Virus genome (UHGV): UHGV-0101604
Source of the DNA: a virus
Length of the DNA stretch: 34,403 nucleotides
Reading direction: 5' to 3' (one strand)
The notes under the pieces are model-generated. The model saw nothing but the letters and a program-made list of their open reading frames with translations, was not told the origin of the DNA and searched no databases. The position numbers were made by a program, and so were the translations under genes. Shown one piece after another: positions 414-22,873 of the stretch (within the stretch, counting starts at the first letter, position 1; each line of letters starts with the position of its first letter).

Positions 414-854
414 ATGAAAAAACTAACCTTTGAAATTCGATCTCCAGCACATCAGCAAAACGCTATTCACGCAGTACAGCAAATCCTTCCAGACCCAACC
501 AAACCAATCGTAGTAACCATTCAGGAACGCAACCGCAGCTTAGACCAAAACAGGAAACTATGGGCCTGCTTAGGTGACGTCTCTCGTCAGGTTGAATGGC
601 ATGGTCGCTGGCTGGATGCAGAAAGCTGGAAGTGTGTGTTTACCGCAGCATTAAAGCAGCAGGATGTTGTTCCTAACCTTGCCGGGAATGGCTTTGTGGT
701 AATAGGCCAGTCAACCAGCAGGATGCGTGTAGGCGAATTTGCGGAGCTATTAGAGCTTATACAGGCATTCGGTACAGAGCGTGGCGTTAAGTGGTCAGAC
801 GAAGCGAGACTGGCTCTGGAGTGGAAAGCGAGATGGGGAGATCGGGCTGCATGA
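414..854 (+). CDS. ninB: NinB-like recombination protein
   Basis: Translation MKKLTFEIRSPAHQQNAI...SLDQNRKLWACLGDVSRQVEWHGRWLDAESWKCVF matches my memory of lambda NinB; ATG at 414 with GGGGAGAGGGAAG upstream (track ORF begins at an upstream TTG at 396); about 146 aa. Confidence 0.85.
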   Translation: MKKLTFEIRSPAHQQNAIHAVQQILPDPTKPIVVTIQERNRSLDQNRKLWACLGDVSRQVEWHGRWLDAESWKCVFTAALKQQDVVPNLAGNGFVVIGQSTSRMRVGEFAELLELIQAFGTERGVKWSDEARLALEWKARWGDRAA

Positions 855-1378
855 CTATCAAATCAAATACGCCAGCACACGACAAGGACTGCTGGCAAAC
901 GCCGCTTTGGCTTTTTGATGCACTGGATATTGAGTTTGGATTCTGGCTGGATTCGGCAGCGAGCGACAAAAATGCTCTGTGTGCTCACTGGCTAACTGAG
1001 GCCGACGACGCGCTCAATTCTGAGTGGGTAAGCCACGGTGCAATCTGGAATAACCCACCGTACAGCAATATCAGGCCGTGGGTGGAAAAAGTCGCTGAGC
1101 AGTGCATACAACAGCGACAGACGGTAGTTATGCTTGTGCCAGAGGATATGTCAGTCGGATGGTTCAGCAAGGCTCTGGAGAGTGTCGACGAAGTTCGCAT
1201 TATCACTGATGGACGGATTAATTTTATCGAACCATCGACAGGGCTGGAGAAGAAGGGAAACAGCAAAGGCTCCATGCTGCTGATTTGGCGACCGTTCATC
1301 AGTCCTCGACGGATGTTTACTACCGTATCCAAAGCGGCATTGATGGCGATCGGGCAGGGCGTCAGGAGGGCGGCATGA
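851..1378 (+). CDS. Phage Dam-type DNA N6-adenine methyltransferase
   Basis: Contains the NPPY catalytic motif ([14 protein letters not shown]) and [17 protein letters not shown]-terminus typical of phage orphan adenine methylases; ATG at 851 overlaps the ninB stop (ATGA). Confidence 0.85.
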
Positions 1379-1724: not shown

Positions 1725-2328
1725 ACCAGCGCGAAGACGATGTAAAAACGATGAATGTCGGGAATGGTTTCACCCTGCATTCGCTAATCAGTGGTGGTGC
1801 TCTCCAGAGTGTGGAACCAAGATAGCACTCGAACGACGAAGTAAAGAACGCGAAAAAGCGGAAAAAGCAGCAGAGAAGAAACGACGACGAGAGGAGCAGA
1901 AACAGAAAGATAAACTTAAGATTAGAAAACTCGCCTTAAAGCCCCGCAGTTACTGGATTAAACAAGCCCAACAAGCCGTAAACGCCTTCATCAGAGAAAG
2001 AGACCGCGACTTACCATGTATCTCTTGCGGAACGCTCACGTCTGCTCAGTGGGATGCCGGACATTACCGGACAACTGCTGCGGCACCTCAACTCCGATTT
2101 GATGAACGCAATATTCACAAGCAATGCGTGGTGTGCAACCAGCACAAAAGCGGAAATCTCGTTCCGTATCGCGTCGAACTGATTAGCCGCATCGGGCAGG
2201 AAGCAGTAGACGAAATCGAATCAAACCATAACCGCCATCGCTGGACTGTTGAAGAGTGCAGGGCCATCAAGGCGGAGTATCAGCAGAAACTCAAAGACCT
2301 GCGAAACAGCAGAAGTGAGGCCGCATGA
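1714..2328 (+). CDS. ninG: NinG (Rap) recombination-associated protein
   Basis: 204-aa product with CxxC...CxxC zinc-ribbon-like motifs and a KR-rich linker ([34 protein letters not shown]...); matches NinG in size and position. Confidence 0.85.
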
Positions 2329-2371
2329 CGTTCTCAGTAAAAACCATTCCAGATCACAAGGGAGAAGGCGC

Positions 2372-2860
2372 ATGGGCATAAGAGAACTAAACCTCACCAA
2401 AGAACAGCACGAGTGGCTGAATGGCTGGCTTGAACTGTGGGGCGCATGGGTTTATTCAGGTCGTCTGGAAAAGCGCATGAGCAGCGTAATAGCTAAGTTC
2501 ATGGAGAGCGTAGAGCCGGGAAGAGTTATGACAAGGCCAATGTGTAATGATGATGATGGAATGTTGATTTCTCAGGTCGTCGATTCCGTCATGTACATTG
2601 ACAAGAAAGCCTTTGGCATCCTCCTCAGCTACTACGCCCACGGCTCTTCCAAGCACGCCATTGCATCTTACTATCATCGCGTCGCAAGACCTCGCAAGAT
2701 GTTATGCCGGGGCGGCGGGCGCATTCAAAAACCATCGCTCGCAACCTGTCGACGGGAAGTTGACGAAATCATCAATGCCTCGTTGTTTATGATTTACCCG
2801 GTTCTGGATAGTGCGTTTAAAAACCGGAAACGTGTAGAGAAAATTAAACATATAGCATAG
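2372..2860 (+). CDS. Q: Late-gene antiterminator Q family protein
   Basis: ATG at 2372 after GGAGAAGG; product MGIRELNLTKEQHEWLNGWLELWGAWVYSG...; last gene before the late promoter/tRNA/lysis region. The track ORF starting at 2249 is read as an upstream extension. Confidence 0.8.
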   Translation: MGIRELNLTKEQHEWLNGWLELWGAWVYSGRLEKRMSSVIAKFMESVEPGRVMTRPMCNDDDGMLISQVVDSVMYIDKKAFGILLSYYAHGSSKHAIASYYHRVARPRKMLCRGGGRIQKPSLATCRREVDEIINASLFMIYPVLDSAFKNRKRVEKIKHIA

Positions 2861-2951: not shown

Positions 2952-3026
2952 GGGTCAGTCGTATAAAGGTCATTACGGAAGGCTGTTAACCTTCTTATCG
3001 TGGTTCGAGTCCACGCTGTCCCGCCA
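2952..3026 (+). tRNA. tRNA-like gene, anticodon GTT (Asn) by manual folding
   Basis: 75 nt; perfect anticodon stem GAAGG/CCTTC with loop CTGTTAA; perfect T-arm CGTGG-TTCGAGT-CCACG; 3' CCA; acceptor stem has one T-T mismatch and the D-arm is weak. Confidence 0.45.
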
Positions 3027-3031
3027 AATAT

Positions 3032-3106
3032 GCTGGTTTAGCTCCAATGGTAGAGCGGTCGCCTTGTAAGCGAATGGGTAGCGGTTCAAGTCCGTTAACC
3101 AGCACC
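3032..3106 (+). tRNA. tRNA, anticodon TGT (Thr) by manual folding
   Basis: 75 nt; perfect 7-bp acceptor stem GCTGGTT/AACCAGC; canonical D-arm GCTC-CAATGGTA-GAGC; anticodon loop CTTGTAA; T-arm AGCGG-TTCAAGT-CCGTT; encoded CCA. Confidence 0.65.
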
Positions 3107-3225
3107 ATAACTGAGCCGTAGCCACTGGATGTCCTGAATTCATCAGTGATAGTTATGCTGCGGTCTTCTTTTTCTCCCTTCCCAATATAAGAACTACGCA
3201 ATCCGTTACTGGCGGAGGCGTTGCT

Positions 3226-3441
3226 ATGAAATCAATGGACAAAATCTCAACTGGCATTGCCTACGGAACATCCGCTGGTAGTGCGGGATACTGGTTTTTG
3301 CAGTGGTTGGATCAGGTCAGTCCATCACAGTGGGCTGCGATTGGGGTGCTTGGAAGCCTTGTGTTGGGCTTTCTCACCTATCTGACAAATCTGTACTTCA
3401 AAATCAGAGAAGACAGAAGAAAGGCTGCGAGAGGTGAATAA
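3226..3441 (+). CDS. S: Class II holin (phage-21 S-type pinholin) with dual-start motif
   Basis: 71-aa product [71 protein letters not shown] with two TM segments and Met1/Met4 starts, as in phage 21 S. Confidence 0.9.
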
Positions 3442-3938
3442 TGCCTCCATCATTACGAAAAGCCGTTGCTGCGGCTATTGGTGGCGGGGCTATTGCTATA
3501 GCATCTGTGTTAATCACTGGCCCAAGTGGTAACGATGGTCTGGAAGGCGTCAGCTACATACCATATAAAGATATCGTTGGTGTATGGACTGTATGTTACG
3601 GGCATACCGGAAAAGACATTATGCTCGGTAAAACGTATACCGAAGCAGAATGCAAAGCCCTCCTGAATAAAGACCTTGCCACTGTCGCCAGACAAATTAA
3701 CCCGTACATCAAAGTCGATATACCGGAAACAACGCGCGGCGCTCTTTACTCGTTCGTTTACAACGTTGGTGCTGGAAATTTCAGAACATCGACGCTTCTT
3801 CGCAAAATAAACCAGGGCGATATCAAAGGCGCATGTGATCAGCTACGGCGCTGGACATACGCTGGCGGTAAGCAATGGAAAGGTCTCATGACTCGTCGTG
3901 AGATTGAGCGTGAAGTCTGTTTATGGGGGAAGCAATGA
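3441..3938 (+). CDS. R: SAR (signal-anchor-release) endolysin, T4-lysozyme-like muramidase
   Basis: N-terminal G/A-rich weakly hydrophobic SAR segment ([20 protein letters not shown]) followed by a lysozyme core ([23 protein letters not shown]); ATGA overlap with the holin stop. Confidence 0.9.
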
Positions 3939-4327
3939 AGATCCACTACAAGATAATTATCTTCGCGTTCGCATTGAGCGTACTGGGCGTCATCGTTTGG
4001 TCAGCAAGCCATTATCACGATAAGTATCAGGCGGAACGGCTACGCGCAGATGCTGCCGAGCAGAACGCCAACGCCGCCGAAGCGATCACCGCCAACGTCA
4101 TTCGGTCTGTGAACATCATCAACGCCATTGCAGAGGCCAACCAGGATGCAAAGAACCAGATCACACTGGAGTCACAGGGAGCCCAAGCAGATATCAAAGT
4201 GGCTATTGAGAATGATGACTGCGCTCATCGGCCTGTGCCTCCTGCAACTGCTCACCGGCTGCGGCAATTCGCGGACAGTTTACGTACCGGTATCGGTAGT
4301 GCCTCTACCGGCAAACCTGACAGCTGA
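3935..4327 (+). CDS. Rz: Rz-like inner-membrane spanin
   Basis: N-terminal TM helix ([19 protein letters not shown]) then a coiled-coil-like periplasmic domain; ATG at 3935 overlaps the endolysin stop with GGGGGAAG upstream (alternative ATG at 3923). Confidence 0.8.
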
Positions 4328-4469
4328 GACGCAACAGCCAGCCATTCCCGAACCGCTGACCTATGGGGCCAGTCTGGAGCTGAATGTTAGCCTGCTATCG
4401 GCGCTGGGTCAGTGCAACATCGATAAGGCTAGTATCAGGAAGATTGAAGAGTCTCGGACCTCTCTGTAG
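4212..4469 (+). CDS. Rz1: Rz1-like outer-membrane lipoprotein spanin, overlapping Rz in another frame
   Basis: [17 protein letters not shown] has a lipobox (LTGC) followed by a proline-rich segment; starts inside Rz in the +1 frame and extends beyond the Rz stop. Confidence 0.75.
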   Translation: MMTALIGLCLLQLLTGCGNSRTVYVPVSVVPLPANLTAETQQPAIPEPLTYGASLELNVSLLSALGQCNIDKASIRKIEESRTSL

Positions 4470-4589
4470 AAGACTATTTTGCTGCCATGAAGAAGCTTTA
4501 TATCTTTGGTCAATACATCGAACAGATCAGATAATTCTTATGTGATTGATGCTATATTTATCCCCTATTTAAACATGGGAGTTACGGAT

Positions 4590-5390
4590 ATGTCTGTCAG
4601 TCAAGATATTTATAAGTCTACACTTAGAGTTGAAAGTGATACTCCAGAGGGAACCTCGGTAGGAACTGCTTTCTGGTTTTGCTTTGTTATGGAAGGTGGT
4701 GAAGATATTGTTCCACTCTTGGTAACTAATAAGCATGTTGTTAACGGGGCAACAGAAGTTAGGCTACGTCTAAACATTACCGACAGCGCAAATCCTGAGA
4801 TAAAATTTTATAACCTAACAATTTCAGAGGGGGCAAATGCGTTCATTATGCACCCTGATGATAATGTTGATATATGCATATTGCCTATCGCTGGATTGCT
4901 GAATGAGATGGAGAAAAGTGGCATTAGCCCAGAACTCTTCTTTTTCACAGATCGTCAGATGCGTGGTAACAATTACATTACTCCTGTCGAAGATGTTTAC
5001 ATGACAGGATATCCAAATGGATTATGGGATTCTGTAAACAATAGGCCTGTTACCAGGAAAGGCATCACAGCATCATCACCTATGGAAAACTGGAAGGGTA
5101 AGCCTGAATTCCTCATTGATATGGCTTGTTTCGGTGGTTCTAGCGGTTCTCCCGTTTATATAATGAACCAAGGCTCATATGCTACTAATGATGGTATTGC
5201 TATGGGGGAGAGATTAATTTTCCTTGGGTTGTTGTATGCAGGGCCAGTAACGAATGTTAGCGGGAATATTGAAATTATTGACGTACCAACAGTCGCTACA
5301 CCAGTTGTGCGTTCTGAAATTACAATGAATCTCGGATTTGTTATTAAAGCAGAGAAGCTAAATGACTTTAAGCCTCTCTTGGGGATTTAA
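4590..5390 (+). CDS. Stand-alone trypsin/chymotrypsin-fold serine protease (moron gene)
   Basis: His-Asp-Ser triad in canonical order and spacing: TNKHVV (codon 4734-4736), DICIL (Asp about 4869), GGSSGSPV (Ser about 5142). No signal peptide seen. ATG at 4590 after GGGAG (track ORF extends to 4506). Markedly AT-rich relative to flanking phage genes. Confidence 0.75.
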   Translation: MSVSQDIYKSTLRVESDTPEGTSVGTAFWFCFVMEGGEDIVPLLVTNKHVVNGATEVRLRLNITDSANPEIKFYNLTISEGANAFIMHPDDNVDICILPIAGLLNEMEKSGISPELFFFTDRQMRGNNYITPVEDVYMTGYPNGLWDSVNNRPVTRKGITASSPMENWKGKPEFLIDMACFGGSSGSPVYIMNQGSYATNDGIAMGERLIFLGLLYAGPVTNVSGNIEIIDVPTVATPVVRSEITMNLGFVIKAEKLNDFKPLLGI

Positions 5391-5394
5391 CACA

Positions 5395-5420
5395 AGCCGC
5401 CTCCGGACGGTTTTTTTATT
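5395..5420 (+). terminator. Probable intrinsic terminator after the protease gene
   Basis: Short GC hairpin (CCG...CGG around TCCGGA) followed by TTTTTTTATT immediately after the protease stop; the stem is weak, the T-tract strong. Confidence 0.4.
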
Positions 5421-5435
5421 GCTATTACAAAAGCC

Positions 5436-5467
5436 ACTCCATGCCGAGTGGCTTTGATAATGGCTTA
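5436..5467. terminator. Strong hairpin, likely bidirectional terminator
   Basis: Perfect 10-bp stem AAAGCCACTC/GAGTGGCTTT with loop CATGCC; A-tract on one side and T-tract on the other, so it can terminate on either strand. It lies downstream of the minus-strand ORF 5739-6011. Confidence 0.5.
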
Positions 5468-5523
5468 TACCCTACACGGGATAACTTAACTGATATCCCA
5501 ACAAGCGGATAAAGAGGTTCTCA

Positions 5524-5649
5524 ATGTCCGACATCTACCAAATCATGTTAACCACCCAAACAGGCGAAACCTTTACGGGTAAGATGTCACGACGTCAGCG
5601 TGAGCTGGTTAATGGCTTTATGCAGCCGGCTACCGAGATGGGCGAGTAG
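5524..5649 (+). CDS. Small ORF (41 aa) with strong RBS; hypothetical
   Basis: ATG at 5524 preceded by AAAGAGG at good spacing; product MSDIYQIMLTTQTGETFTGKMSRRQRELVNGFMQPATEMGE. Below the ORF-track size cutoff; no homology recognised. Confidence 0.3.
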   Translation: MSDIYQIMLTTQTGETFTGKMSRRQRELVNGFMQPATEMGE

Positions 5650-5738
5650 AATAACTCCATTAGGAGAATGTGGAACCATTACACTTTGAGCCGTTAACTG
5701 ATATTGATAAAGGTAAATAATATCGTGGTTAAGGCTTT

Positions 5739-6011
5739 CTAATAGCCAGCCATTTGCAAAATCACAGTTGCAGCAGCAGCGAAAGCTGCATATGAGTTAT
5801 ATTTAGACTGTAACCGCGCAGTTAAGAAAAATTCGTGAAGATCTACATTTTTTTGGGGATCATCAAATGTAATTGCTACAACGGTGCTTCTACCTGTTTT
5901 GACTTTGGCTGTTGCTGATTTGATCCATAACCCAGCCGATAAAAAACCAAAGAAAATTGATAGTGTATGATGGTCAATTAACCAGTTTTTAATTAGTAAT
6001 AAATCACTCAT
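5739..6011 (-). CDS. Hypothetical small membrane protein (minus strand) within the AT-rich moron region
   Basis: Minus-strand ORF; likely start at the Met of MSDLLLIKNWL (6011). Hydrophobic segments LSIFFGFLSAGLWI and AAFAAAATVILQMAGY. AT-rich; convergent with the protease gene. Weak RBS, so coding status is uncertain. Confidence 0.35.
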   Translation of the reverse strand: MSDLLLIKNWLIDHHTLSIFFGFLSAGLWIKSATAKVKTGRSTVVAITFDDPQKNVDLHEFFLTARLQSKYNSYAAFAAAATVILQMAGY

Positions 6012-6035
6012 TTTCAATCCAATTGAGACTTTGCC

Positions 6036-6587
6036 ATGGCACTCACCGACAAACAAGAAATGTTCTGTCGCGAGTACCTCATCGATTTAAACGCCACACA
6101 AGCGGCTATTCGGGCGGGGTACAGCGCAAAGACAGCCAACCGTACTGCGTCCGAAAACATGTCAAAACCTGACATCAAGTTAAGAATCGCTGAACTGAAA
6201 GCGCAACGCAATGATCTTGTTGGTATTAATGCAGAATATGTACTTAATCGCCTTCTTGAAATCGACCAGATGGATGTGCTTGACATTCTCCTGCAAAACG
6301 GTGAGCTAAAACCCATTAAAGACTGGCCTAAGGTATGGCGCACAACGCTATCAGGAATGGATGTCGTGGAGATGGTATCCGCAGATAGCGCCGCACTTCT
6401 GAAGAAAATCAAATGGCCTGATAAGGTTAAAAACCTTGAGTTGCTTGGGCGTCATGTTTCTGTTCAGGCGTTTAAAGACAACGTCAAAAATGAAGTGACT
6501 GGCGCTGATGGAGGACCAGTCAGAACAGAAATTACCAACTTAACGCCGGAGCAGGCTGCAGAGGCGTATAGAAAAATGATGGGCTAA
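6036..6587 (+). CDS. Terminase small subunit
   Basis: 183-aa protein [34 protein letters not shown]... (HTH-type small terminase N-terminus), directly upstream of the large terminase. Confidence 0.8.
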
Positions 6588-6589
6588 GT

Positions 6590-8212
6590 ATGCCGTTACC
6601 ATTCCCCTTCGATTTTAAACATCCTGATTACCAGATGGTTTTTGAATGGCGGATGGAACGCCTACAGCGCATTCGCCAGAATCCTGAAATATTGCCCGTG
6701 TTGAAGCAGTTTTACCGAACCAATCCGGCTCAGTTCATCATCGACTGGGGCATGACAACGGACCCGCGTAATATTGATTATGGCCTGCCGGTGACCATTC
6801 CGTTTTTACTCTTCCCTAAGCAGGAGGAGTGGATCCACTGGATTATGGAACGCTGGAGCAATCGGGAGAATGGTATTACCGAAAAATCCCGTGAAATGGG
6901 GCTCAGTTGGACCGCGATCGGACTGGCCTGCTCGCTTTGTCTCTTCAACAAAGAAATGGTTATCGGTTTCGGCTCCCGTAAAGAGGAATACGTCGACAGC
7001 ACTGGTGACCCGAAAGCATTGTTCTGGAAGGCGCGCAAGTTCGTGGAAACGCTACCTGTAGAGTTTCGCGGTTCGTGGAGCGAGAAGAAGCACGCGCCAT
7101 ATATGCGTGTTGAGTTTCCTGAAACTGGTGCCGTTATCAAAGGCGAGGCTGGCGATAATATTGGTCGCGGTGACCGTACCACGCTTTATCTGGTTGATGA
7201 GGCTGCATTCCTTCAGCGTCCTCTGCTGATTGATGCGGCGTTGTCACAAACGACGCGTTGCCGTATTGACCTGAGTTCAGTTAACGGCATGGCGAACCCG
7301 TTCGCACAGAAGCGTCATGGCGGGAAGATACCGGTATTCACATTCCACTGGCGGGATGATCCTCGCAAGGATGAAGAGTGGTATCGCAGGGAATGCGAGA
7401 AAATCGATAATCCGGTGGTGGTGGCACAGGAACTTGATCTGAACTACAGCGCATCAGCGGAAGGCGTCCTGATTCCATCCGAATGGGTACAGGCTGCCGT
7501 TGATGCGCATATCAAACTGGGTATCCAGCCAACAGGCAAACGACTTGGCGCGATGGATGTCGCCGACGAAGGCAGGGACAAAAATGCCTTTTCCACCCGT
7601 CATGGCTTCCTCCTGGAGAATGTGCGGGAATGGTCCGGTGTGGGCAGCGACATTTATCAGTCCGTCGAGAAGGTCTTCGGCTTTTGCGAACAGGACGATC
7701 TTGAAGAGTTTCGCTTTGACGAGGACGGGCTGGGCGCTGGCGTTCGCGGCGATGCACGCGCTATCAACGAACTGCGTAACGCTGCGCGTCGACCGTCAAT
7801 ACTCGCCACACCGTTTCGAGGTAGTGGCGCGGTATTTGATCCGGATGATGAAGCTGTTCGCGGGGACAACGGGCAAGCCGCACGTCTGAACAAGGACTTC
7901 TTCGCTAACGCCAAAGCCCAGAGCTGGTGGCGGTTACGTAAACTTTTCCAGAACACCTACCGTGCCGTGGTTGAGGGCATGGCCTACAACCCGGACGAAA
8001 TCATCTCAATCAGCAGCGCCATGGCGAGCAAAGACAAACTCATCATCGAGCTGTCGCAGCCGACCTACTCCATTAACGGCGTGGGGAAAATCGTTGTTGA
8101 TAAACAGCCTGACGGCACCAAGTCGCCGAACCTTGCCGACTCGGTGATGATCAGCTACGCGCCAATGAATTCAGCCCTGAACATCTGGGAGCTGCTAGGG
8201 AGACAGGCCTGA
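6590..8212 (+). CDS. Terminase large subunit
   Basis: 540 aa; ATPase region with Walker-B-like LYLVDEAAF and a C-terminal nuclease-like region; sits between small terminase and portal. Confidence 0.9.
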
Positions 8213-9681
8213 TGGCACGAAACAAGCAAGCCTCTCAGCGAACGGCACAGGCCACCGCTGATGGCTATGAGAACTTTGTCGCCCGCGTGGGGATGCAGAC
8301 GCCTAACCAGCACTCAGCATCGACCTACCGGGCTAACTTCACCAGCCGCAACCGCATGCTGGTGGAATGGTCCTATCGTTCGTCCTGGATCATCGGCGAA
8401 GCGGTCGACGCTATCCCGGACGATATGACCCGGAAAGGCATTCGCATCACTTCGGAGATTGACGCCAAAGACCGTGGCACCCTGGAAGCGCAGCTGGATG
8501 AGTTGCAGATCTGGGATGCGCTGAACGACGTGCTGAAATGGTCGCGTCTCTACGGCGGCGCGGTTGGCTTCATCATGATTGAGGGGCAGGCACCAATGAC
8601 CCCGTTGCGGCTCGAAACCATTGGAGAAGGCAAGTTTAAGGGCATTCTCCCGCTCGACCGCTGGATGATTAACCCGGTGCTGACCCGCCGCATTAAAGAG
8701 ATGGGGCCGGACCTGGGTAAACCTGAGTTTTACGACGTGGTGACCACTGCAACGGGCATCCCGGCCTGGCGCATCCATCACAGCCGCCTGATTCGCTTCG
8801 ACGGGGTGACGCTGCCATTCCAGCAGAAGATGACCGAAAACGAATGGGGAATGTCGGTTGTAGAGCGTATCTGGGATCGTCTTACCGCGTTCGACAGCGC
8901 TACTGTCGGCGCGGCGCAGCTGGTCTACAAGGCGCATTTGCGTACCTACAGCGTGGAGAAGCTACGCGAGCTTATCGCACTTGGTGGTCCTGCGTATGAA
9001 GCGTTGCTGAAGAATATCGACCTGATTCGACAGTTCCAGAGCAATGAAGGCATGACGCTCATGGACTCGCGGGATAAGTTTGAAACGCATCAGTACAGCT
9101 TCAGTGGTCTGGATGACATCCTATCGCAGTTTGCAGAACAGATTAGTGGCGCTGTTGGTATTCCACTGGTGCGGTTGTTCGGACAGTCCCCGAAAGGATT
9201 TTCTACCGGTGATGCAGATCTTGCCAACTATTACGACCGCATCAGTTCGTTGCAGGAGAGGCGTTTACGTCTTCCGGTGCGTCGGATACTGGACATCATG
9301 CATCGTTCGGAACTTGGCAAGCCGCTCCCGGATGATTTCACGTTTGAGTTTAACCCGCTCTGGCAAATGTCTGATGTCGATCGCTCAACGGTGGCGTTAA
9401 ACACCACCAACGCAATCAGTACGGCGCTGGGCGACGGATTGATGACGCGTAAGGCGGCAATGACCGACCTGCGCGAAAACTCTGACGTCACCGGCATCGG
9501 GGCATCCATTACCGACGAGGACATAGAGAATGCCGAAGACGAAGCGCCGCCAGGCATCGGCGAACTTGGCGACAACCCGCCAGAGTCGCCAGGCGGAGAT
9601 CCGATATCGAACGAGCCTACGGCAGATAGCGCGGGCGGTCGGGGATATCGTAAATGGGCGCTACGATGGTTCAAACGATAG
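8212..9681 (+). CDS. Portal protein
   Basis: 489 aa, ATGA-coupled to terminase; acidic Gly/Pro-rich C-terminus; position and size typical of portals in Mu/SfV-like head modules. Confidence 0.85.
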   Translation: MARNKQASQRTAQATADGYENFVARVGMQTPNQHSASTYRANFTSRNRMLVEWSYRSSWIIGEAVDAIPDDMTRKGIRITSEIDAKDRGTLEAQLDELQIWDALNDVLKWSRLYGGAVGFIMIEGQAPMTPLRLETIGEGKFKGILPLDRWMINPVLTRRIKEMGPDLGKPEFYDVVTTATGIPAWRIHHSRLIRFDGVTLPFQQKMTENEWGMSVVERIWDRLTAFDSATVGAAQLVYKAHLRTYSVEKLRELIALGGPAYEALLKNIDLIRQFQSNEGMTLMDSRDKFETHQYSFSGLDDILSQFAEQISGAVGIPLVRLFGQSPKGFSTGDADLANYYDRISSLQERRLRLPVRRILDIMHRSELGKPLPDDFTFEFNPLWQMSDVDRSTVALNTTNAISTALGDGLMTRKAAMTDLRENSDVTGIGASITDEDIENAEDEAPPGIGELGDNPPESPGGDPISNEPTADSAGGRGYRKWALRWFKR

Positions 9682-10303
9682 CGTCACCGAAATCATGGAT
9701 GCGCTGGAGCGCTACAGCGAAATCATCACCCCCTGGGCGACGAAGGTTGCTGAGAACTTTACCGCCGACATTGCGCGCCAGAATGAAAAGCAGTGGCGTC
9801 AGCACAGCCGGAACATCAGTGCAGAGCTGCGCAACATGGTTGACCGCGCCCCGGTAGGCCAGGTGATGAAATCCATCGTTGCCGAGCAGATTAAGTACAT
9901 CAAATCGCTACCTCTTGAGGCCGCCGATCGGGTGTATGACATTCAGAACAAAGCCATCGAGGCCGTTGTGACTGGTGGCCGTGCTGAGCCATTCGCGAAA
10001 GAGATAGCTGCGTCCGGTGACGTGTCACGCTCACGAGCGAACCTTATCGCCCGTACCGAGCTTGGACGCGCAACCGGCGCGCTCGATCAGGCGCGTGCGC
10101 TGTCAATCGGCTCGAATGGTTATATCTGGCGTACAGCCGAAGATGGCGACGTCCGGCATTCTCATCGGGAGATGGAAGGTAAGTTTGTCGAATGGGGCCG
10201 ACCTCCAACGCTTGACGGTATGACCGGTCACGCTGGTGAGCTGCCGAACTGCCGCTGTTACAAAGAAATCGTCTTCCCCAACCCTCATTCTTATCTCGCC
10301 TGA
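9530..10303 (+). CDS. Head morphogenesis protein (Mu gpF / SPP1 gp7-like minor head protein)
   Basis: C-terminal conserved region ...LIARTELGRATGALDQARALSIGSNGYIWRTAEDGDVRHSHREMEGKFVEWG... typical of MuF-family proteins. Start at 9530 (GAGGA nearby) overlaps the portal 3' end by about 150 nt; ATG at 9695 is the alternative. Confidence 0.8.
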   Translation: MPKTKRRQASANLATTRQSRQAEIRYRTSLRQIARAVGDIVNGRYDGSNDSVTEIMDALERYSEIITPWATKVAENFTADIARQNEKQWRQHSRNISAELRNMVDRAPVGQVMKSIVAEQIKYIKSLPLEAADRVYDIQNKAIEAVVTGGRAEPFAKEIAASGDVSRSRANLIARTELGRATGALDQARALSIGSNGYIWRTAEDGDVRHSHREMEGKFVEWGRPPTLDGMTGHAGELPNCRCYKEIVFPNPHSYLA

Positions 10304-21717: not shown

Positions 21718-22491
21718 ATGGCGGCAGGCATCCCATTAGAAAAAGCGCAAAAATATATTGAACAATTCAATGCGCTTCTATTGGATAGGGAAAGTTTAGA
21801 TCCCTTCACTGAAAAGAAAATTCGAGAGGAACTTTCTGTCTCTCCAACGCCTGCTACCAACATTGCACTATCTTATCTGGATGCAATAACCGGAAAGATT
21901 GAAAGCGCGTTACGTTATCTCAGGATAAGCCTAGAAGTAAACGATGTAACGTTGGCAATGCACTATCATCACATTTTAATTAATACATTTAGCTATAATG
22001 AACTCAAGGATGTCTATGTCCCGCTGGCAAAGAAGTATCGGACAAAACTCTTTAGTCACAACGCATACAGTTGGGCGTACCGTTGCGGCGAGCGTGAACA
22101 GTTAAAATTTTATATGGAAGAGCACATTAAGCTTCTTTCTGAATCAGAAGGCAGGAGTAATGCTATGAAGCACAAAGAAGAACTCCTTGCAGAAATGGAT
22201 AATTTCTATAGCGCCACACAGTGCTCGAAGGAACAGTTCCAGACCTTAGCATCCATAATCTGGGGCTTGCTAAGTGAATACAAGGCTACGACAGGTTTCG
22301 TTCAGCTTAGTGGAAGCGGTTGCTATGTTGTTGATATTAAAAATCTTGAGCCTAAAACTATTGCCAAAATGAACTTCGACTTGGCTGATAGAGTCTGCGC
22401 TGAATCTAAACTGGATGATTGTTCCCTGTTAGCTAGATTTACCTCTCCGCGTCAGTTGCATACGGGGGTGAGCTACCATGTCGGTAACTAG
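21718..22491 (+). CDS. Hypothetical 257-aa protein, first gene of an AT-rich two-gene cassette
   Basis: ATG at 21718 after an AT-rich intergenic region; mostly helical-looking sequence with no motif I recognise; its 3' end overlaps the start of the next gene by 14 nt. Confidence 0.7.
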   Translation: MAAGIPLEKAQKYIEQFNALLLDRESLDPFTEKKIREELSVSPTPATNIALSYLDAITGKIESALRYLRISLEVNDVTLAMHYHHILINTFSYNELKDVYVPLAKKYRTKLFSHNAYSWAYRCGEREQLKFYMEEHIKLLSESEGRSNAMKHKEELLAEMDNFYSATQCSKEQFQTLASIIWGLLSEYKATTGFVQLSGSGCYVVDIKNLEPKTIAKMNFDLADRVCAESKLDDCSLLARFTSPRQLHTGVSYHVGN

Positions 22492-22873
22492 CAATCAGAT
22501 TCTCGATACCGCTCGATTATGTCTGTCTGAAAATATTGAGAGTGGATTTCGAAGCGCTATCTCAAGGGCGTATTACAGTATGTTACATGAGTCTATTAGC
22601 TCACTTACTGCCATACCGCATTTTACCCATGAGCATCACAAAAATACTGTGGGTTATATGTCAACGCCCTCAGAGTGCAAATCAGAGCCATACCCGACAA
22701 ATACACTGAAATCCCTAGCTTTCGTACTTCGCCAGTGGCGGGATGCTAGAAATGAAGCTGACTATGATCTGACGAATGTGACTGTTTCGAAAGAGATGGG
22801 ACAGGATGCAATCGAGGCTGCTGAACTCTATTTTGAGCGCTGGGAACAGCTAAAGTCTGCTAGAGTTTCATGA
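22478..22873 (+). CDS. HEPN-like small protein (candidate RNase/toxin), second gene of the cassette
   Basis: 131 aa, RBS GGGGGTGAG; N-terminal helix signature SRAYYSMLHES and C-terminal RDARNEADYD resemble conserved HEPN-fold motifs (Rx4-6H-type signature and variants), from memory; followed by a strong terminator. Confidence 0.65.
   Translation: MSVTSNQILDTARLCLSENIESGFRSAISRAYYSMLHESISSLTAIPHFTHEHHKNTVGYMSTPSECKSEPYPTNTLKSLAFVLRQWRDARNEADYDLTNVTVSKEMGQDAIEAAELYFERWEQLKSARVS

Follow-up and report, generated by a model that had tools for sequence, protein, structure and literature searches.

The Lit protease, encoded by the cryptic lambdoid prophage e14, cleaves EF-Tu when the Gol peptide of phage T4 is present, and it provides the closest working model for the gene that is the subject of this analysis. 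That gene encodes a trypsin-fold serine protease and lies between the lysis genes and the terminase genes in UHGV virus genome UHGV-0101604, a 34,403-nucleotide stretch of DNA (hereafter the window) from a serotype-converting lambdoid prophage. Like Lit, its product is a single protease, predicted to be cytoplasmic, carried by a lambdoid prophage; and the behaviour of Lit, which is latent until a phage product appears and then brings about abortion, is proposed here by analogy. The two differ in that Lit is a zinc metalloprotease of unrelated fold, and no relationship of sequence or structure between them was found; the analogy is one of function alone.

Proteases with the trypsin fold have been described in anti-phage immunity in several arrangements: in trypsin-MBL modules (Hachiman/Avs2/Argonaute), in protease-nuclease pairs, as Lamassu effectors, and in reverse transcriptase (RT)-protease fusions (PMC12799240; 10.1101/2025.09.03.673762; PMC12642450). 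These multi-component systems share with the window protease both its catalytic class and its Pfam family, but in them the protease is fused to, or encoded beside, the sensor and the pro-effector that it cleaves, whereas the window protease has neither a conserved neighbour nor an extra domain. A closer match is found among the PDC families, which were predicted from the occurrence of members inside BREX, DISARM or type I restriction-modification (R-M) operons and which comprise 145 candidates; the family PDC-S45 has its source in the guilt-by-embedding screen of Payne et al. (10.1101/2024.01.29.577857). The window protease resembles PDC-S45 in giving a full-length match to its profile, in being a single gene, and in having relatives inside BREX and type I R-M operons; it differs in being carried as cargo by a prophage, away from any R-M or BREX partner. 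In one study, which did not include PDC-S45, four of eight other PDC/HEC candidates were found to be protective (PMC12881386).

Two further comparisons bear on the protein and on its position, respectively. HtrA enzymes (DegS, DegP/DegQ, and plant Deg1 and Deg2) and the V8/Esp proteases are 16–21% identical in sequence to the window protease. Unlike them, it has no PDZ domain, signal peptide or pro-peptide, and it bears a 27-residue loop specific to its family and a GYPNGLWD..NN motif. As to position, the bor gene of phage lambda encodes a lipoprotein and occupies the slot between Rz and cos/terminase, on the opposite strand and with its own promoter. Morons of the bor type and the window protease gene have in common the same slot, the character of AT-rich cargo that varies between related phages, and a hairpin that follows; the window gene, however, runs in the same direction as the late operon, and its match to a promoter is at chance level.

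The protease and its family

The six-frame list of open reading frames (ORFs) gives the gene as 4506–5390 on the plus strand, encoding 294 amino acids if translation starts at a TTG codon. The start is most likely to be the ATG at 4590, which gives 266 amino acids. This start is favoured because a GGGAG Shine-Dalgarno sequence (4577–4581), the gene's own ribosome-binding site as a preliminary description of this DNA had proposed, lies 8 nt 5' of it, and because the aligned ATG is also where the homologues of Klebsiella, E. coli and Enterobacter begin, each behind a GAGAGG site of its own.

The preliminary description, which was made from the DNA letters alone, had seen here a stand-alone trypsin-fold protease with an intact catalytic triad, and both points are borne out. 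The Pfam family Trypsin_2 (PF13365) matches at 41.8 bits (cut-off 27.6; E 2.3e-10) and is the sole domain: the same Pfam search revealed no second domain and no PDZ domain. The protein is predicted to adopt the double β-barrel chymotrypsin fold. It contains the motifs VTNKHVV, VDICIL and FGGSSGSPV, with the catalytic residues in the canonical order His49, Asp94 and Ser185, an order conserved across the family, and the codon for the serine is exactly where it had been placed. Ser185 aligns with the catalytic serine of the GGNSGSP motif of V8/Esp. An alignment of 267 family members shows further invariant motifs, namely TNKHV, GYPxGxWD..NN.P..R.G and GSSGSP. HtrA enzymes are the nearest structural relatives, and the chain ends 10 residues past the C-terminal helix of the protease fold; the protein is, to judge from its sequence, a catalytically competent, single-domain enzyme with an HtrA-like core.

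Neither a signal peptide nor a transmembrane segment was found. The N-terminus is hydrophilic and acidic, and no 19-residue window has a Kyte-Doolittle value above 1.34, from which the protease should be cytoplasmic; hydropathy and Pfam thus agree with the earlier suggestion of a cytoplasmic protein free of signal peptide and PDZ domain. The possibility of a secreted HtrA/DegP-like protease was rejected, in the absence of a PDZ domain, signal peptide or transmembrane segment. Likewise, nothing in the protein corresponds to the PDZ domain or domains, or to the export signal or membrane anchor, that characterise HtrA/DegP enzymes (S1C). Taken together, the alignment and the predictions show the family to be an active-site-intact, putatively cytoplasmic protease under strong constraint. 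The long loop that follows the substrate-binding strand is part of this picture: Gly225 and Pro233 are conserved within it, and its centre (residues 221–235) is the sole region of the structural model with a predicted local distance difference test (pLDDT) score below 50.

The protease is a member of an already catalogued candidate defence family, one that had been flagged earlier by others. Its match to the PADLOC model PDC-S45 has an E value of 1.1e-100 (334 bits) and covers positions 11–283 of the 293 in the profile, and so the statement in the preliminary description that no named system could be assigned no longer holds; its hedged guess at a defence effector agrees with this full-length match, which is itself a prediction. 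The match to PHROG 7688 is also full-length (E 2.4e-100), although members of this group are absent from the 50,697 deposited phage genomes that were searched, and PHROGs assigns it no function. Weak matches were obtained to the profiles RT-Protease_XI (E 2.5e-6) and LmuA (E 1e-3). One paper lists a PDC-S45 match in Sinorhizobium prophages.

The family is widely spread. In a scan of one genome per species, relatives were found in 510 species, drawn from many bacterial phyla and two archaeal lineages, and these are still 39–46% identical to the window protease. An exhaustive profile search returned 1,941 clusters at 50% identity (E <= 1e-30); among the best-scoring 150 of these, nearly all members are 265–310 amino acids long and match from end to end. 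Ten longer family members were searched for domain fusions, and only Trypsin_2 was found in them; their extensions are probably over-called starts.

A mobile cassette in the spanin-packaging slot

The coordinates of the cassette and its flanks are collected in Table 1. The protease gene was shown to be a mobile cargo cassette of about 1 kb in the variable slot between the spanin and packaging genes of a serotype-converting lambdoid prophage. Its limits, at about 4470 and 5460, were drawn from three comparisons: with Salmonella prophages, with E. coli prophages that have the same packaging module, and with an HK97-like prophage. In Salmonella P22-like prophages, which encode a protease 96% identical in protein sequence, the block 3001–5513 is present at 94–96% DNA identity; past 5513 the Salmonella copies give way to packaging and head genes of P22 type, which bear no relation to the window's. 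From the other side, a region covering at least 80% of window positions 5400–9700 occurs in 146 complete E. coli genomes, and the best of these matches, which are about 95% identical, start from about 5460 and contain the same terS/terL/portal module. In the E. coli prophages the slot after the spanin genes is occupied not by the protease gene but by a 135-residue hypothetical protein or a Rha regulator, and in phage PhiR49_1 by KilA-N and other small genes. In an HK97-like prophage of E. coli, nucleotide homology to the window is confined to the protease ORF. The left-hand limit of the cassette is set at the Rz1 stop at 4469 and the right-hand limit within 5460–5513, the interval between the start of the E. 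coli matches and the end of those in Salmonella. The cassette so delimited agrees closely with the 4480–5470 of the preliminary description.

Table 1. Positions in the window of the protease gene, its cassette and the neighbouring lysis and packaging genes.
Feature	Position	Strand	Remarks
Antiterminator Q	2249–2860		upstream of lysis cassette
Left flank, lysis cassette	3226–4469	+	P21-type holin, lysozyme, Rz, embedded Rz1
P21-type holin	3226–3441	+	lysis cassette
Endolysin (lysozyme)	3441–3938	+	lysis cassette
Rz	3923–4327	+	lysis cassette
Embedded Rz1/LysC	about 4212–4469	+	lysis cassette
Accessory (moron) cassette	about 4470–5460	+	spacer, protease gene and two hairpins; 40.0% G+C
Upstream spacer	4470–4589	+	sigma-70-like TGGTCA-17-GATAAT at 4507–4535; GGGAG at 4577–4581
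Protease gene (ATG start most likely)	4590–5390	+	266 amino acids, 29 kDa (29.1), isoelectric point 4.6; single Trypsin_2 domain; member of PDC-S45 and PHROG 7688
Codon CAT, catalytic His49	4734–4736	+	TNKHV motif; invariant in 267/267 aligned family members
Codon GAT, catalytic Asp94	4869–4871	+	VDIC motif; invariant in 267/267 aligned family members
Codon AGC, catalytic Ser185	5142–5144	+	GGSSGSP motif; kept in 266/267 aligned family members
Long loop, residues 220–246	5247–5327	+	after substrate-binding strand; 27 residues in 222/267 members
Terminator-like hairpin with T7 tract	5394–5420	+	4 nt past stop codon; dG -7.3 kcal/mol, z -1.0, weak
Strong 10-bp hairpin	5430–5455	+	dG -15.7 kcal/mol, z -4.4; no long T tract
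Right flank, terminase	6036–8212	+	terS 6036–6587 (Terminase_2), terL 6590–8212; portal further downstream

The presence of the gene thus varies between otherwise closely related prophages, and the base composition of the cassette (40.0% G+C) is unlike that of its neighbours (50.6% and 53.9%). This upholds the placing of the gene, in the preliminary description, in a variable moron slot between lysis cassette and terminase, on the evidence both of gene order and of the sister prophages that have other genes there. The AT-rich character noted earlier is likewise evident in the ORF itself, at 40.3% G+C against 50.6% in the lysis genes and 53.9% in the terS-portal region. The claim that hairpin/T-tract terminators follow the gene stands only in part: the short hairpin just past the stop codon does have a tract of seven T residues but is weak, while the strong hairpin downstream of it lies at the recombination junction on the right of the cassette and lacks a long T tract. 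A scan of 4200–6200 against Rfam gave nothing meaningful, the best match having an E value of 0.72. The upstream spacer is conserved in the Salmonella copies only.

More distant enterobacterial relatives and their neighbours bear out this mobility. Those from Klebsiella, E. coli and Enterobacter (59–68% identity) also follow lysis genes, but the holins, endolysins, terminases and head types beside them differ, and the flanking genes differ in every enterobacterial context. The Morganella relative (44% identity) immediately precedes terS, and lysis genes are absent from its vicinity; that of Providencia occupies a site between P and Q, in the early nin region; and that of Serratia is in a prophage remnant stripped of all structural genes. 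Since relatives occur elsewhere in other prophages, and outside prophages altogether, the link of the protease to lysis and terminase genes is one of position and not of function, and a dedicated role in lysis or packaging is unlikely. The cluster that contains the window protease at 90% identity includes more than 1,500 contigs, mostly from Salmonella but also from E. coli and E. marmotae; a megablast search of 5,426 complete E. coli genomes did not find the gene.

Immediately to the right of the cassette there is a second AT-rich stretch (5461–6056, 39.8% G+C), which holds a 41-residue ORF (5524–5649, plus strand) and a 105-residue ORF (5739–6056, minus strand), the latter membrane-like and overlapping the start of terS. 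These two ORFs were considered as parts of the cassette and rejected, as they stay with the packaging module in those E. coli prophages without the protease gene, whose annotation lists both as hypothetical. Neither has a match in Pfam or PADLOC.

Proposed role and competing explanations

Outside the lambdoid prophages, the relatives of the protease are found on a variety of elements. In a Bacillus phage-plasmid the gene lies between tail genes and the integrase/holin genes; on a 13-kb Acinetobacter plasmid it is alongside an MvaI/BcnI restriction gene; and on a Moraxella plasmid it is flanked by transposases. In other genomes it is embedded in defence operons. A metagenome-assembled genome of Balneola sp. 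(locus L041) has the gene order BrxC, PglX, protease, PDC-S11, TmtA-like, PglZ, in a BREX operon in which the protease gene overlaps the PglX stop by 4 nt, and a Micrarchaeia archaeon (L065) has the order HsdM, HsdS, protease, HsdR. Type I R-M genes adjoin the protease gene in three further loci (L055, L071 and L073), and other neighbours match models for type IIG, DRT UG19 and SoFic. Relatives are therefore truly embedded in BREX and in type I R-M operons, but this is a property of those relatives: the window copy is not itself inside a BREX, DISARM or type I R-M operon and has no such partner nearby. The Balneola locus also offers an observation in its own right, in that its BREX operon (2184–19679 of L041) has three genes in a row embedded between PglX and PglZ, which encode the PDC-S45 protease, PDC-S11 and a 1,783-residue TmtA/Mokosh-like protein and so form a short run of defence candidates stacked within a known system.

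A partner for the protease was sought by an all-against-all comparison of neighbouring proteins within four genes, in 65 loci left after near-identical ones had been removed. No conserved partner gene was found across these loci, apart from a set of near-identical Collinsella loci, and the protease gene is thus a single-gene unit that stands alone. In Collinsella spp. (L079–L097), the surroundings of the protease gene are conserved as one locus in about 14 genomes, with three tandem paralogues of about 357 residues upstream and a 163-residue PglX-like fragment downstream.

On balance we lean towards the view that the protease is a one-protein factor for anti-phage defence or for competition between elements, a latent HtrA-like enzyme, the role, the latency, the trigger and the target being what we infer from the evidence above. 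The enzyme would be made in a latent state, given that a free cytoplasmic protease must be restrained. Background on HtrA enzymes suggests how this might be achieved: in DegS and DegP the loops equivalent to residues 220–246 are disordered at rest and become ordered on activation. The conserved 27-residue loop of the window protease, which lies beside the substrate-binding strand and is partly flexible in the model, may be such an HtrA-like activation loop, with a regulatory role like that of L2. A product of an infecting phage would then either activate the protease or serve as its substrate, an essential protein of host or phage would be cleaved, and the infection would be stopped in the manner of Lit, to the benefit of the carrier cell or carrier element against other phages. 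A more specific form of this proposal, in which the 29-kDa protease is a complete immune system that senses a phage protein, as allosteric activator or as substrate, through the 27-residue loop and the GYPNGLWD..NN surface, and then cleaves an essential host or phage protein, is put forward tentatively and is the more doubtful of the two.

Several observations weigh against a defensive role. A literature search for any experiment on the PDC-S45 family, or on a stand-alone trypsin-like defence protease, found none among the accessible papers. Many of the distant homologues lie amid ordinary metabolic or regulatory genes; and only some six of the 65 loci touch R-M or BREX genes, in a crude count that is a lower bound and lacks a matched background rate, so that enrichment near defence genes is not proven. 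The gene is co-oriented with the late operon. Sigma-70-like sites number five, against 4.1 expected in shuffled sequences, and the site in the upstream spacer matches at 9 of 12 positions; a promoter of its own, and hence the expression in the lysogen that defence would need, is to that extent unproven. The proposal of latency and of a regulatory loop draws on low pLDDT values and on the analogy with HtrA. Finally, a tblastn search of the 50,697 deposited phage genomes, at E values up to 1, revealed no homologue; this absence may be a matter of sampling, or the gene may be costly to a phage in free growth.

The main rival explanation is that the protease serves the lytic cycle of the phage itself, as a late function expressed from the late transcript together with the lysis genes. 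Possible forms of this include degradation of host proteins, tuning of lysis, or release at lysis to act outside the cell, for instance in the destruction of receptors on debris. The orientation of the gene and its position immediately after Rz/Rz1 favour such a role, as does the failure of the promoter signal to rise above chance, and the slot is identical in prophages of Salmonella, Klebsiella, E. coli and Enterobacter. Yet the gene is not linked to any one type of lysis, terminase or head gene; it occurs in the early nin region in Providencia and has been kept in the Serratia remnant that has lost its structural genes; its relatives are found on small plasmids and in BREX and type I R-M operons unconnected with phage, including that of the archaeon; and closely related prophages do without it, as do all of the 50,697 phage genomes. 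A late function is therefore considered unlikely, though it is the strongest of the alternatives.

Carriage by prophages, a phage-plasmid and plasmids would also fit a role in counter-defence, in which the carrier element gains from the breakdown of a host immune protein by the protease, and a protease is a plausible means of removing such a protein. Expression from a position in the late operon would, however, come too late to shield an incoming genome, and the chromosomal copies that are translationally coupled inside BREX and hsd operons are in an odd place for an inhibitor of defence. No trypsin-like protease is known to us to act in counter-defence, and this role is judged improbable.

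A similar low standing is given to the idea that an addiction or toxin-antitoxin-like module has the protease as its toxin, or that the gene is a selfish stabiliser with no anti-phage role, which we think distinctly improbable. Protease toxins are known, IetS of ietAS being one (PMC13069673), and the gene is AT-rich, mobile and potentially toxic; but no partner is conserved in the 65 loci and there is no fused regulatory domain, and a lone constitutive toxin could not be maintained.

Toxins released by phage lysis have a well-known precedent in Stx, and the same prophage carries the serotype-conversion cargo gtrABC and an acyltransferase, both of which might point to a lysogenic-conversion or virulence factor with the animal host or the cell envelope as its target. 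The protein has no signal peptide or transmembrane segment, however, and the occurrence of the family in soil, marine and gut bacteria, in bacteria of the candidate phyla radiation and in archaea, at 39–46% identity, is a poor fit to host-specific virulence; this explanation is accordingly given very little credence. The last candidate, a prohead-maturation or virion-associated protease, has the proximity of the gene to head genes in its favour and was rejected, since there is no match to a prohead protease in Pfam or PHROG, the gene is not part of the head module, sister prophages do without it, copies also occur outside prophages, and it has no constant linkage to a head type, being found with heads of P22 type (which use a scaffold but not a protease), of HK97 type (with an S78 protease of their own) and of Mu-F/DUF2213 type.

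On the points at which the preliminary description had allowed that its suggestion might fail, then, the homologues show no tie to a head type or to prohead maturation, the triad is intact, and homologues are found in both moron and defence contexts. In the protease-based anti-phage systems known so far, the protease works together with a separate sensor, with a pro-effector or with both, and the trypsin-like proteases whose defensive role is established all belong to multi-gene or fused systems. If the anti-phage reading is correct, a lone protease would combine sensing and killing in about 270 residues, a new minimal design; it would be the smallest protease-based defence known, and one common to enterobacterial prophages, plasmids, BREX and R-M operons, and archaea. 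One PADLOC candidate would thereby be validated, and the slot between spanin and terminase genes in lambdoid prophages would be confirmed as a site for defence cargo. If the reading is wrong, the case would counsel caution over predictions based on embedding. The window copy is a convenient test case, being native to lambdoid prophages of Salmonella and E. coli, 1 kb in length, and open to a clear catalytic mutant (Ser185Ala), in hosts for which good phage collections are to hand.

Other features of the prophage

Elsewhere in the window, the nin region contains a 195-residue ORF (791–1378, plus strand) that matches the PADLOC model for an orphan DNA methyltransferase (E 7e-19) and is probably a Dam-like phage methylase. 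Genes for tRNA-Asn(GTT) and tRNA-Thr(TGT) lie at 2952–3107 on the plus strand, between Q and the holin gene, in a region common to Salmonella prophages. In the tail region, two ORFs of 257 and 131 residues (21718–22873, plus strand), which have no Pfam or PADLOC match, coincide with a dip in G+C content to 41–44% and may represent a further insertion of cargo.

The most AT-rich stretch of the window (30–31% G+C) encodes a 349-residue Acyl_transf_3 protein (27790–28839, minus strand), just after the tail-fibre assembly gene; it is probably an O-antigen acetyltransferase, and looks like a second conversion cargo gene. Between it and the gtr genes there is an insertion-sequence transposase made up of two ORFs (29289–30477, plus strand), with a DDE_Tnp_1 match in 29692–30477. 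The O-antigen glucosylation cluster itself occupies 30867–33613 on the minus strand, with a G+C content of 31–37%, and consists of GtrA (33251–33613), a GtrB-like family 2 glycosyltransferase (32331–33254) and a type-specific glucosyltransferase of the GtrII family (30867–32327). It is this cluster that identifies the element as a serotype-converting prophage.

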